This document shows positions 41,205 through 43,787 of a DNA stretch of 64,000 nucleotides, in pieces; the stretch's first letter is position 1; each line of letters opens with the position of its first letter. Below the pieces are notes generated by a model. The model was not told where the DNA came from, made no database searches, and worked only from the letters and a program-made list of their open reading frames with translations. The translations under genes and the position numbers were made by a program. This stretch comes from Candidatus Thorarchaeota archaeon. GTDB taxonomy: Archaea; Asgardarchaeota; Thorarchaeia; Thorarchaeales; Thorarchaeaceae. The DNA lies in NCBI GenBank assembly GCA_019057475.1, contig DXJO01000020.1, positions 32,001 through 96,000 on the forward strand, read 5' to 3'.

Positions 41205-41271
41205 GGGGCGGTAGTCTAGCCCGGCTATGATGTCTCGCTTACACCGAGAAGATCGCTGGTTCAAATCCGGC
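41205..41271 (+). pseudogene. 3'-truncated tRNA-Val(TAC)
   Basis: 60 nt identical to the next tRNA but different 5' acceptor strand (GGGGCGG) and no 3' strand or CCA. Confidence 0.85.
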
Positions 41272-41333
41272 ATTATGAGTATGCGAAATCTCACACAACG
41301 CTTTTAATCGGTCGTCAAACAAATTGTCGTCTA

Positions 41334-41411
41334 GGGCCGCTAGTCTAGCCCGGCTATGATGTCTCGCTTACACCGAGAAGATCGCTGGTTCAAATCCGGC
41401 GCGGCCCACCA
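41334..41411 (+). tRNA. tRNA-Val(TAC)
   Basis: GGGCCGC/GCGGCCC acceptor, TCTCG-CTTACAC-CGAGA, TTCAAAT, CCA. Confidence 0.95.
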
Positions 41412-41719
41412 TCTGATTTCTTCTCTGGATATATGGCAACAACGACTCTTTTCCTTTTCGTCTTCTCCTAACCAGCAGGTCCGCATAATTATCTCTGTTT
41501 TCCTATAACCATATCAAATGTTCATCTAATAAATATACGAGTCTTACATAACTTCTAGATGCATTCCAGCTAAATTAGACATATATTTGAAATATTAGCT
41601 TAATAACTTTATAACTCAATGTAGGGATTACTGTACGAGTTCATAACCAATTCTGATGACGGAAGTAGGAGTGAGCTCAACTGACCGAACAGGTCAGAAC
41701 TTTATATCTCGAAGGCGAC

Positions 41720-43405
41720 GTGACGATGGTTCATTCCAAGGGTGTGACAATCGCAGTTAAGGTTCCCATTAAGTGGGAATCAATGACCAAGAGAACTAAG
41801 CAGAGGCTTAGACAAATCGTCGGGCGTGACACCCGAGTCATTCGTGCCTTTCTTGGAGTAATTGAACAGCACGAAAATGAATTGTTGATGGGTCGCAGAT
41901 TGGAACGGATTAACGAAAGCAAACTGGATACACTCACGATAACTGCTGTCAAGGTCAAGCCGGGCTATAGTCAACGACTAAGTGTGCCTCATGACTTCAA
42001 GAAGCGCTTTCCAAGGATATCACACAATGAAATCCAGGAATGCAGACAGACCGCGGTGGCGCTTTATGAGAGCTACCTCGGGTTGAGGAGCAAGAGAGGA
42101 CGAAAGGCTTCAAAACCGTGCGCGGTCAACTCGACGAGGAGAATTCCACGCTGGGCTTTCTCTCAGAGATTCAAACTCTTTGAGAAGACAAATGCAACCT
42201 CTCGCTGGTGGCTCAATCTGCGGGATTCCTTTGACTCAATTCCTGAGGGCCGAAGAATTCATGATCGATTGACCGTTCCCCTGAGAATCTCGCCCTTTCA
42301 TCTGAACCAGTTCAAAAGGGGTGAAGTCAAGGCTCTACAGATATTCACTGATGACTCCAAAAAGTGGTGGGTGACCTTTGCTATACGTGTAGATACACCT
42401 GAACATCCTGACGAGTTTCTCCCACGTGCTGTTCTCGGCATCGATTTAGGAATTAAGAAGGCTGCATGTACTACGCTGGTAACTCCCACAAAGGTCAGAG
42501 AAACCCGCTACTTCAAGCAGAAGGATAAACAGGGTGTACTGCAAAAACTTGACCAGAGAATTTCTGACCTTCAGAGCAAGGCAGACACCCGATTCAATAG
42601 AGGTCAGAGCGCCGACATGGTGTTGGTGAAGACACGCGCACTCAAGCATAAACGAGAGAATGTTTCCAGAGAGTACGACCGCATACTCGTGAATCAGCTC
42701 ATGGAATACATCATTGGGCTGTCCAAGAAATACACTCTCTACATAGCCCTAGGTAGATTGAAGGGAATTCGTGGTGGTGCACGTCGAGGCAACTACAAGG
42801 GTCGCAAGTTCCGTGGAATGATTCACAGATGGACCTTTGCTAGAACCACCAACAGCCTCAAGCATCAGCTAGCACAGCTTGGTTGGCAGGTCGAGGGTAA
42901 GAATGCACATTTCAGGATTATTCCAGAGAACTGGACATCCATTATGTGTTGGAAGTGTGGTCGAAAGGGCAACCGTCCAAAGCAGAACCTGTTTGTGTGT
43001 TCGACCTGCGGCAACAAGTGCAATGCTGACAAGAATGGCTCCATTAACATCGCTGGACGACTAATTACGATCACAGAGTCACTTCATTCTGTGAGAGGAC
43101 TAGGTTTCTGGACATGTGCAATTGAAAGAGCACAAAGTTCGGGGCCGAAAGCCCGAAGGAAGACATGTTCTTCTCGAGGGAAGTCCTTACCCCCCAAAAG
43201 AGACAATGCATCTGGTCCAGGGGGGTCCGCGGCTGTTCACCAAGTTCAATCGGACCTTCTCAGCTTCGGCGACGAAACTGGGATGGGTGATAATGACCCC
43301 GCCGTGGAAAACACTGTGGTAAGACTCTCTGCTGCTGGAAGTGATGCTCCGGCAATAGGACAGGAGAAAGAAGCCAGGTCTGTGGGAGGGATTTCATTCC
43401 GATGA
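41720..43405 (+). CDS. tnpB: TnpB-family RNA-guided nuclease with rearranged RuvC and long C-terminal tail
   Basis: GIDLG (RuvC-I), IALG, IPENWTS, CWKC..CSTC Zn finger, NADKNGSINI (RuvC-III); no tnpA nearby. Confidence 0.88.
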   Translation: MTMVHSKGVTIAVKVPIKWESMTKRTKQRLRQIVGRDTRVIRAFLGVIEQHENELLMGRRLERINESKLDTLTITAVKVKPGYSQRLSVPHDFKKRFPRISHNEIQECRQTAVALYESYLGLRSKRGRKASKPCAVNSTRRIPRWAFSQRFKLFEKTNATSRWWLNLRDSFDSIPEGRRIHDRLTVPLRISPFHLNQFKRGEVKALQIFTDDSKKWWVTFAIRVDTPEHPDEFLPRAVLGIDLGIKKAACTTLVTPTKVRETRYFKQKDKQGVLQKLDQRISDLQSKADTRFNRGQSADMVLVKTRALKHKRENVSREYDRILVNQLMEYIIGLSKKYTLYIALGRLKGIRGGARRGNYKGRKFRGMIHRWTFARTTNSLKHQLAQLGWQVEGKNAHFRIIPENWTSIMCWKCGRKGNRPKQNLFVCSTCGNKCNADKNGSINIAGRLITITESLHSVRGLGFWTCAIERAQSSGPKARRKTCSSRGKSLPPKRDNASGPGGSAAVHQVQSDLLSFGDETGMGDNDPAVENTVVRLSAAGSDAPAIGQEKEARSVGGISFR

Positions 43406-43595
43406 AGGCAGACGAAGCTCCGACTAGGCCTTGGGTAGCGCCAAGGCTTGATGGCGACATCGAGTCGGGGAAGGGTGGAACACAGGAGTTTCCGAGGGTT
43501 GAGCTCACTCAACCTATGGGAACGGGTCAGCCGGCCCGCCCTATCATTTTCAGTCACTGCGATATGGGCGGCAGGTTTAGCTGATTGGGTTATGA
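43405..43595 (+). ncRNA. Putative omegaRNA-like structured RNA
   Basis: CTCCGACT/AGTCGGGG enclosing GCCTTGG/CCAAGGC and GATG-GCGA-CATC hairpins; TCAGC..CCGCCC/GGGCGG..GCTGA hairpin. Confidence 0.6.
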
Positions 43596-43787
43596 GTTGA
43601 TTGGAACCACCAAATTAGACCGATTCGTGAAGACATTCGCGGACTCAAGATACTTTGGTTGTCGAGAAGAGCATAATCTGTTTCCTTGGAGATAACAGTG
43701 CATCTGTCATTAATCACCAAAGCATTGAAGAGCCAATTCGCTAGCCCAAAGACTTGCGGTGAGTTCCTGCGGGTTTGACCATAGAAT

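Follow-up and report, generated by a model that had tools for sequence, protein, structure and literature searches.

Covarying complementarity between a module upstream of tnpB and the last omegaRNA hairpin of a Thorarchaeota mobile element

The element described here lies in a 64,000-nt stretch of DNA from a Candidatus Thorarchaeota archaeon (assembly GCA_019057475.1, contig DXJO01000020.1, positions 32,001 to 96,000; this whole stretch is called the window, and coordinates are given in its numbering). Its tnpB gene stands between two short segments that are complementary to each other: M3 (GAGTGAGCTCAAC, 41669-41681), in a module upstream of the gene that we call M, and R5 (GTTGAGCTCACTC, 43498-43510), in the last hairpin of the presumed omegaRNA. 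Comparison of homologous loci indicates that this complementarity is a real, conserved and covarying interaction and, within the open-access literature that we searched, it is new. As to its function, we tentatively favour, with a probability of about 0.4, a reading in which M makes a CRISPR RNA (crRNA)-like partner RNA, giving rise to a two-piece guide that is possibly self-repressing.

Pairing across the tnpB gene

The 13-nt complementarity between M3 and R5, which an earlier note on this DNA had pointed out, is listed by a repeat finder as 100% complementary; in the window it amounts to an uninterrupted helix of 13 bp, with no further pairing beyond it. The features needed to follow the argument are these:

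41599 to 41604, + strand: CTTAAT motif, just 5' of DR1; CTT(A/C)AT in most homologues
41605 to 41617, + strand: DR1, AACTTTATAACTC, core of the upstream promoter (TATA1), differing from DR2 by one base
41636 to 41644, + strand: M5, CGAGTTCAT, the 5' arm of M, which pairs with 41671-41678 and contains TCATAACC
41647 to 41669, + strand: hp1, a small hairpin in M, with TGATGA in its loop and stem
41669 to 41681, + strand: M3, GAGTGAGCTCAAC, the upstream pairing partner, made up of the constant half GAGTGA and a variable half
41681 to 41697, + strand: hp2, CTGACC gaaca GGTCAG (arms 41681-41686 and 41692-41697)
41698 to 41710, + strand: DR2, AACTTTATATCTC, core of the tnpB promoter (TATA2), directly after the end motif of M, at the would-be guide position
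41726 to 43405, + strand: tnpB, 559 aa from ATG; the open reading frame (ORF) is open from a GTG at 41720 (559-561 aa)
43075 to 43530, + strand: presumed omegaRNA scaffold, comprising the last ~330 nt of the ORF and the right end; kept in non-autonomous copies
43488 to 43523, + strand: last scaffold hairpin, GTTTCC gag GGTTGAG ctca CTCAACC tat GGGAAC
43498 to 43510, + strand: R5, GTTGAGCTCACTC, the downstream partner, a variable half plus the constant TCACTC
43518 to 43530, + strand: terminal motif of the right end, GGGAACGGGTCAG; the element ends at 43530

The homologue set comprised 25 loci from at least 12 genera of the family to which the window genome belongs, and the covariation counts were made on 20 non-orthologous homologues from related genomes; L028 is the syntenic orthologue in a sister species (L and G numbers denote loci and genomes). 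The constant half of the pairing, GAGTGA/TCACTC, never changes across copies, and M3 is completed in the homologues by 7-9 variable nt. This variable half differs from copy to copy while its two sides stay matched; no fewer than 8 distinct complementary types were counted. Examples are GCTCAAC/GTTGAGC in the window, ACTCGAC/GTCGA-T, ACTCCAC/GCGGAGT, CTCCAC/GTGGAG and AACTCC/GGAGTT, together with AAACCCTC/GAGGGTGT, ACTCCCTT/GAGGGGGT, GGCTCCGCC/GGTGGGGCC and GGCTCCGC/GTGGGGCC. The variable halves of the 20 copies contain 134 Watson-Crick pairs, 16 G.U pairs, 2 A.C and 3 other mismatches, and 13 single bulges. When the right ends were re-dealt among the copies, the observed pairing score was reached in 0 of 20000 trials. 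So many distinct complementary types argue against a single inherited accident.

A whole-element alignment (A3) gave the same picture. In it, 85.5% of cells were paired, compared with 26-46% for slid partners, and the covariation score was 0.198 against 0.106 +/- 0.015 for shuffled data (0/500 as high), with 7 pairs and 17 cells carrying changes on both sides. Since one alignment column is misaligned by a bulge, these figures are conservative. Duplex energies calculated for own and foreign partners over the long right-end region did not discriminate between them, the CTCAAC/GTTGAG type being common to many copies and so long a region giving spurious duplexes; anchored pair scoring and column counts were used in place of that measure.

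The excess of G.U over A.C indicates that it is the sense strand that pairs, either as RNA or as top-strand single-stranded DNA, and excludes recognition of a double-stranded inverted repeat. Nor do the partners behave as invariant terminal inverted repeats, the outcome by which the earlier note had proposed to be judged: both are internal to the element and hypervariable with compensation, and the pairing tolerates G.U (or G.T, in DNA) and not A.C. L029, with a damaged M, and L039, with none, have lost the complementarity. Within a single genome, four full copies carry three clearly different variable halves.

R5 takes up the 5' arm of the last omegaRNA hairpin together with its constant TTCACTCA loop; it lies inside the element, with ~20 nt between it and the right end, where the guide position follows. 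In many copies this hairpin has the form N6 - TTCACTCA - N6', and the variable half of M3 is a direct copy of its 3' arm, N6'. An M3:R5 duplex would therefore rebuild the right-end stem and extend it through the loop. To judge from its sequence and position, R5 is the 'hypervariable region + GTTCACTCA' described downstream of Asgard (aCas1-linked) tnpB genes (PMC10691335), for which a spacer-like guide was guessed at and the question left open. The published stretch and ours share the same TTCACTCA after a fast-changing sequence downstream of tnpB; they differ in that here it covaries with a complementary sequence 5' of tnpB, and in that Cas1 was found in 0/7 genomes of the genus. No description of an upstream partner of the hypervariable region was found in the open-access literature.

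Module M (~95 nt, ~41605-41697) is itself conserved, with a TATA box and hairpins of its own. In most homologues the order upstream of tnpB is CTT(A/C)AT, TATA1, ~25 nt, CGAGTTCA (M5), hp1, M3, hp2, TATA2, ~20 nt and the start codon. The first of these motifs could resemble a transposon-associated motif (TAM) or belong to the B recognition element (BRE) of the upstream promoter. M5 has direct homologues in the GAGTTCA of the right-end hairpin and in the region around the tnpB start codon. The sequence of hp1 varies by copy and its stem is kept (CCTATTCTC/GAGAATAGG in L036, CTCCAAT/ATTGGAG in L033). Single-sequence folds pair M5 with the middle of M3 and form hp1 and hp2 in nearly every copy; by alignment count, the M5:M3 and hp2 helices are 82.6% paired, compared with 24-43% when slid, with modest covariation. 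RNAalifold on MAFFT alignments returned hp2 and one short stem only, the alignments being too poor for hp1 and the right-end hairpin. M3 fits R5 better than it fits M5: a G specific to the window's M3 faces C in R5 and only U in M5. Over 62 nt, the M of the orthologue L028 differs at 2 positions, with C-G turned into U.G at one, and the neighbouring non-coding DNA is 79-86% identical, which indicates that M is more constrained than its flanks in this pair. The CTGACC/GGTCAG hairpin on which the earlier note had ended a ~60-nt upstream RNA is present as hp2, and the segment has the anatomy that such an RNA would require.

The 3' part of hp2, GAACAGGTCAG, repeats the motif with which the transposon ends on the right, the M terminus and the right end (43530) sharing the same 12-nt motif (GAAAYRGGTYAK type). 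In most cases the type of end motif matches between M and right end in each copy (GGTCGG-type in L020, L021, L043 and L053; GGTTAG/GGTTAT in L030); L050 has GGTCGG in M without a clear counterpart at the right end.

A second copy-specific relation concerns the sequence that follows M. The TATA-like elements at ~41608 and ~41701 are real, and belong to the 13-nt direct repeat formed by DR1 and DR2. Across 19 homologues, DR1 and DR2 of the same copy agree at 12.5/14 positions, compared with 6.0/14 between copies (0/20000 shuffles), and at the six positions past the TATA core the values are 5.05/6 and 2.25/6, respectively. The identity spans 11-17 nt and then stops sharply. It is copy-specific in most homologues, and in the related copies L038 and L052 both repeats are altered in step. 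Since DR1 lies upstream of the start site of M, only an agent that reads DNA could 'see' it, and an RNA read from DR2 would be the simplest such reader. When the genome was searched for other sites that the M 'guide' or the right-end guide might target, only the locus itself and DR1 came up.

Several side observations concern this left part. A degenerate M-like unit (tacgagtcttacataac ... cttaat) lies at 41545-41604, just 5' of DR1, giving the left part of the element the look of tandem units of promoter plus M. Tandem- and direct-repeat scans found no array of repeats and spacers, just one intact unit and one degenerate one. In L054 (G001) a 31-nt piece of M is tandemly duplicated (gaataYgagttcRaaacccctattctgRacaa), without TATA1/DR1; L054 and L029 share a different upstream flank and appear syntenic. 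L030 and L048 (G017) are full-length and 82% identical, each with one in-frame TGA in tnpB; in L048, CTTAAT, DR1 and TATA1 are missing, and the resemblance to L030 sets in 8 nt before GTATGAGTTCA.

The earlier note had set the inner pairing within a larger structure, in which TCATAACC and GGTTATGA formed an outer closing stem, a box C/D-like K-turn lay directly inside it, and the whole ORF was looped out. Every motif it named lies where it had placed it, and the outer pair does exist in the window (TCATAACCAATTC, 41641-41653, with GATTGGGTTATGA, 43583-43595; 13 nt, 85% complementary), but the pair is conserved only in the orthologue L028. The same is true of TGATGA (41654-41659, 'box C') and CTGA (43581-43584, 'box D'); these boxes and the outer stem are absent from the 19 other non-orthologous homologues. 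TGATGA falls in the variable hp1, TCATAACC belongs to M5 (CGAGTTCAT), which pairs inside M, and GGTTATGA is flanking sequence: 43581-43595, with box D and the outer stem's 3' halves, is 50-65 nt beyond the right end at 43530. The C/D-box match given by Rfam, sR58, is at chance level (16.6 bits, where the gathering score is 55; E = 1.9), and an Rfam scan of the region returned no family at gathering score and chance-level matches only at E up to 5. Across the homologues, then, above-chance complementarity is confined to the inner pair. A bulge-helix-bulge intron, with splicing of the ORF or a circular precursor, was also considered and rejected: the window helix has no bulges and the homologues have bulges of at most 1 nt, against the two 3-nt bulges and 4-bp helix expected. 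The region past the right end contains one further feature:

43581 to 43599, + strand: CTGA ('box D') and GGGTTAT-GAGTTG, flanking DNA outside the element

The second part of this feature, at 43587-43599 and ~60 nt past the right end, combines GGGTTAT, with which a sister sub-family terminates on the right, and GAGTT, with which M5 starts; in L017 (~1646-1660) this 13-mer likewise comes after a right end, another degenerate one. It may thus be the relic junction of another copy, and not a pairing partner.

The element, its nuclease and its copies

The source genome of the window contig is 3.3 Mb in size and 96% complete, and DNA of the locus was recovered in marine-sediment and cold-seep metagenomes. 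The tnpB product matches Pfam PF07282 (Cas12f1-like TNB domain; 1.3e-10), and the solved structures (PDB) that match it best are those of TnpB and Cas12f. The RuvC-I Asp (GIDLG), the CxxC...CxxC zinc finger and the RuvC-III Asp (NADxN) are kept across 21 homologues, so that the protein has both the RuvC fold and the zinc finger that define a TnpB. It departs from the canonical D-E-D triad in that the RuvC-II Glu is replaced by Gly (VAIGRLK) in 21/21 homologues, and an alternative Glu in PExWTS is conserved where this replacement has occurred. When set against the nuclease-dead TldR proteins, it thus keeps two of the three canonical catalytic residues and has the third relocated. TnpB clades with a 'rearranged RuvC-II' have been described and predicted to be active (Altae-Tran et al, 2023; PMC10691335); the window protein is of this type, and its nuclease is probably active and not dead.

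The right end was set by comparing copies with different flanks, in which conservation stops after the GAAAYRGGTYAK motif. The DNA of 43075-43530 is conserved in full and non-autonomous copies alike and has a sharp end beyond which flanks differ; we presume that it is the omegaRNA scaffold, with the guide taken from the flank. The Thorarchaeota TnpB family is very abundant (at least 557 homologues). The window's own genome contains four full-length paralogues, with protein identities of 100, 68, 50 and 47%, as well as ~8 short non-autonomous copies (L003-L007, L010-L012), and ~40 such copies occur in the relative G017 (L076, L081, L086-L105). These short copies keep a ~170-nt 5' module and the last ~430 nt, the omegaRNA region, and contigs often break at them. 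Most of the non-autonomous copies in G017, which are without M, carry a 5-nt loop in place of the R5 top (20/24 short copies have the variable half and TTCACTCA so swapped); those of the window's own genome keep an R5 top identical to that of the full copy L019.

The mobility of these elements departs from that of the IS200/IS605 group, since no Y1 (HUH) TnpA was found and target sites are duplicated. A search for Y1 TnpA (PF01797) gave no match in the 96%-complete genome and did give matches in control genomes. Direct repeats of 5 nt, different for each copy (CAAGA, CTTGA, CTGGA, CTCGA, CTAGA, ACAGA), flank 14 of ~20 short copies in G017, where the left repeat is preceded by T in 16/16 cases, usually by TT. 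Cas1 was not found in the window's own genome, in any of 7 genomes of the genus or in G017, and is present in 18/61 genomes of the family; its absence from the genus and from G017, with its ~40 copies, means that the published link to aCas1 does not hold for these loci.

The window copy itself sits in a tRNA gene. Metagenome contigs from related populations join 41412 (the end of a tRNA-Val gene) to ~43704 (43699-43705), with ~13 other letters between, so the whole 2.29-kb stretch is an insertion relative to those populations. A truncated tRNA-Val gene at 41205-41271 (acceptor GGGGCGG) ends in ...TTCAAATCCGGC, and its missing acceptor strand is found at 43531-43542 (CCGGC-CCGCCCT). The split gene, with CCGGC on both sides, points to a 5-nt duplication around an inserted block of 41272-43530, which carries a complete replacement tRNA-Val (41334-41411). 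The orthologous position in G006 has a single tRNA-Val with a 28-nt intron; intron-bearing tRNA genes are present, as fits an archaeon. Just past the right end, a strong hairpin in the flank (43536-43572; CCGCCCTATC ... GATATGGGCGG) overlaps the tRNA remnant. Other copies (L032, L016, L039 and L049) abut tRNA genes or tRNA 3' fragments, the right end of L032 being followed by ...GTTCAAATCCTGGCGCGCCCGCCA, and the diverged pairs L020/L043, L021/L053 and L035/L049 share the first 10-14 nt of flank. This pattern suggests preferred, tRNA-related target sites. Two other direct repeats were examined as candidate duplications and dropped: the 9-nt repeat AAATTAGAC (41572-80 and 43612-20) abuts no boundary backed by other copies, and an AATAC repeat around L019 was judged to be due to chance.

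A possible two-piece guide and its alternatives

The reading that we favour would work as follows. M, transcribed from its own archaeal promoter (TATA1), would yield a small crRNA-like RNA that folds into the M5:M3 stem and two hairpins. Its GAGTGA(A) would seed on the loop of the omegaRNA hairpin, and the variable half of M3 would then displace the 3' arm of that hairpin, producing a duplex of 13-15 bp. In this way M would contribute the scaffold motif next to the guide (GAACAGGTCAG) together with a 3' extension of its own, so that a two-piece guide resembling trans-activating CRISPR RNA (tracrRNA):crRNA would exist beside the ordinary one-piece omegaRNA. The extension would be read from DR2, and hence equal 11-17 nt at M's own promoter (DR1) in each copy; this second guide could bring TnpB to TATA1, where a match too short to cut would result in feedback repression. 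In this scheme we infer the transcription of M, the RNA-RNA nature of the pairing, the binding of the hybrid by TnpB and the role of DR1 as target. The covarying duplex at the guide-proximal hairpin is of the kind that joins a tracrRNA and a crRNA by repeat:anti-repeat pairing, and the shared end motif, the copied N6' and the copy-specific DR identity argue that M is more than an antisense patch. Of the earlier note's two suggestions, the tracr/crRNA-like guide is thus alive and, on these comparisons, would appear to lead, whereas the end-paired precursor with a K-turn is not borne out. The scheme at its fullest, in which the element uses a two-piece guide as well as a one-piece omegaRNA, with the scaffold as tracrRNA, a single upstream 'repeat-spacer' unit as crRNA, a private 13-15-bp code joining them and a short guide repressing its own upstream promoter, is doubtful as a complete account.

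Known systems provide partial precedents. Compared with TnpB-omegaRNA systems of the IS200/IS605 type, the window element has the same protein domains (Cas12f1-like TNB, RuvC, zinc finger), an RNA-coding region overlapping both the 3' end of tnpB and the right end, a guide position just outside the right end, and non-autonomous copies that keep the RNA part only. It differs in having an additional promoter-bearing module 5' of tnpB whose pairing partner is the last scaffold hairpin, a relocated RuvC-II Glu, no TnpA found in the genome, 5-nt flanking duplications, a large protein (559 aa) and a long conserved RNA region (~455 nt). Splitting of omegaRNA into tracrRNA and crRNA has been reported for TranC, described as transposon-CRISPR intermediates (Jin et al, 2025, Cell, as cited in PMC13565253). 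Going by that citing account, the window would share with TranC a scaffold plus short RNA, a covarying repeat:anti-repeat at the guide-side hairpin, and a partner, here M, that carries the guide-proximal motif and a 3' extension (in our case 11-17 nt matching the TATA1 site). As far as the same account goes, the window element differs in having a single unit, with no array and no adaptation genes, placed in a mobile element 5' of the nuclease gene, in retaining the one-piece omegaRNA, and in a putative guide that matches the element's own promoter. Promoter repression by short guides is known for TldR, with guides of 9-16 nt (10.1101/2023.11.30.569447), and for Cas9 tracr-L. The window resembles these in the 11-17-nt identity between the sequence at the guide position and a promoter, and differs in that its nuclease is not obviously dead and the target would be the promoter of the guide-like RNA itself. 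Together, the splitting of omegaRNA in TranC and short-guide repression by TldR and tracr-L are precedents for a two-piece self-repressing guide.

A number of observations weigh against this reading. The covariation tests ignore kinship, and many copies share the CTCAAC/GTTGAG type. Cofolding M with its right end gave a small mean gain (-4.4 kcal/mol, compared with -2.7 for mismatched partners). The non-autonomous copies of the window's own genome hold R5 without an M of their own. DR1 and TATA1 are missing in three copies (L029, L054 and L048), and DR1 is preceded by AAT/CAT, which is unlike the TT found before most non-autonomous insertion sites and may be a mere BRE. The terminal motif of M is tied up in hp2, a state that may be incompatible with a scaffold piece next to the guide. 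The nuclease looks active, and with a self-matching guide would run a risk of self-cleavage. Finally, among the listed sequencing runs that contain the locus, none is of RNA.

The strongest competitor, which we regard as possible without finding it likely, is control of an antisense or riboswitch-like kind: M would act either as a small RNA in its own right or as the 5' leader of a long transcript from TATA1, and would remodel the last omegaRNA hairpin without supplying a guide, either blocking the binding or processing of TnpB or setting the fate of the transcript as mRNA or guide. The hypervariable half would then be a private address that prevents cross-talk among co-resident elements, as the three clearly different halves among four copies of one genome would suggest. 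In antisense control by RNA-OUT of IS10 and by CopA/CopT of R1, loop-seeded pairing extends into a stem and variable sequences give specificity. The pairing here has this classic geometry, with GAGTGAA seeded on TTCACTC and extended into one arm of the stem, and both partners are switches, since M3 is alternatively paired in M (M5:M3) and R5 in the right end (R5:R3). That the R5 top is dispensable in the G017 non-autonomous copies also fits an accessory loop tied to tnpB-coding copies, and in general antisense control explains the anatomy of M, the covariation and the hypervariability of R5 as well as a two-piece guide does. It leaves unexplained why M ends in the exact right-end motif, mostly of the same type in each copy, and why M is followed by a sequence kept identical to one at its own promoter, and the small predicted energy gain counts against it too. 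Unlike in IS10 and R1, moreover, M3 and R5 lie on the same strand, 1.8 kb apart and non-overlapping, and a guide-RNA hairpin takes the place of a ribosome-binding site as target.

A role at the DNA level, with single-stranded top strands of the left part and right end pairing to mark the ends of the same copy for a transposase, seems improbable. Relatives in IS200/IS605 do work on single-stranded hairpins, G.T is tolerated in single-stranded DNA much as G.U is in RNA (so that 16 G.T against 2 A.C fits top-strand pairing equally), and, as at IS200/IS605 ends, motifs of the left part recur in direct orientation in the right part. However, the ~40 non-autonomous copies of G017 have spread although they have no M and, mostly, no R5 top, and neither partner is terminal, M3 lying ~400 nt and R5 ~20 nt inside the inserted block; these two points make a role in transposition unlikely. 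In addition, the 96%-complete genome has no detectable Y1 TnpA, the 5-nt duplications are not produced by single-strand peel-and-paste, and the promoter of M is conserved at a fixed distance.

We give still less weight to the idea that M is a by-product of common descent, a decayed and internally deleted tandem copy of the element (promoter, start-codon region and right-end hairpin) with no direct interaction. This would account for the resemblance of M5 to R5 (GAGTTCA) and to the tnpB start region (ACGATGGTTCA), for DR1 and DR2 looking like duplicated promoters, for the degenerate unit upstream (41545-41604) and for the identity of the M end with the right end. Independent decay would not, however, hold M3 and R5 complementary through at least 8 variable halves, and the counts already point toward compensatory changes on independent branches. 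Nor would it explain why M3 fits R5 better than its own partner M5, why DR identity is copy-specific with a sharp boundary, or why the orthologous M is under stronger constraint than its flanks.

The earlier note's full model, a precursor closed by TCATAACC/GGTTATGA with an L7Ae-bound C/D K-turn and the tnpB ORF looped out, merits almost no credence: an archaeal host would have L7Ae, and the motifs exist in the window and L028, but TGATGA and CTGA are the sole likeness to an archaeal box C/D small RNA, and the model is refuted by their non-conservation, by 3' halves that lie outside the element, and by the want of Rfam support and of a bulge-helix-bulge.

Implications for TnpB evolution

TnpB is the ancestor of Cas12, and current work asks how an omegaRNA in one piece gave way to separate tracrRNA and crRNA, a question on which module M bears. 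The published and unexplained hypervariable stretch before GTTCACTCA becomes a testable interaction, and M3:R5 pairs become candidates for natural split guides or for RNA-based control of TnpB; their orthogonal RNA-RNA 'addresses' could also serve engineering. With 5-nt duplications, no TnpA found and a replacement tRNA as cargo, the loci depart from IS200/IS605 mobility as well. If the scheme holds in its fullest form, a two-piece self-repressing guide would be a living intermediate, in Asgard archaea, between the omegaRNA of transposons and the crRNA:tracrRNA of CRISPR, and would explain the hypervariable region.

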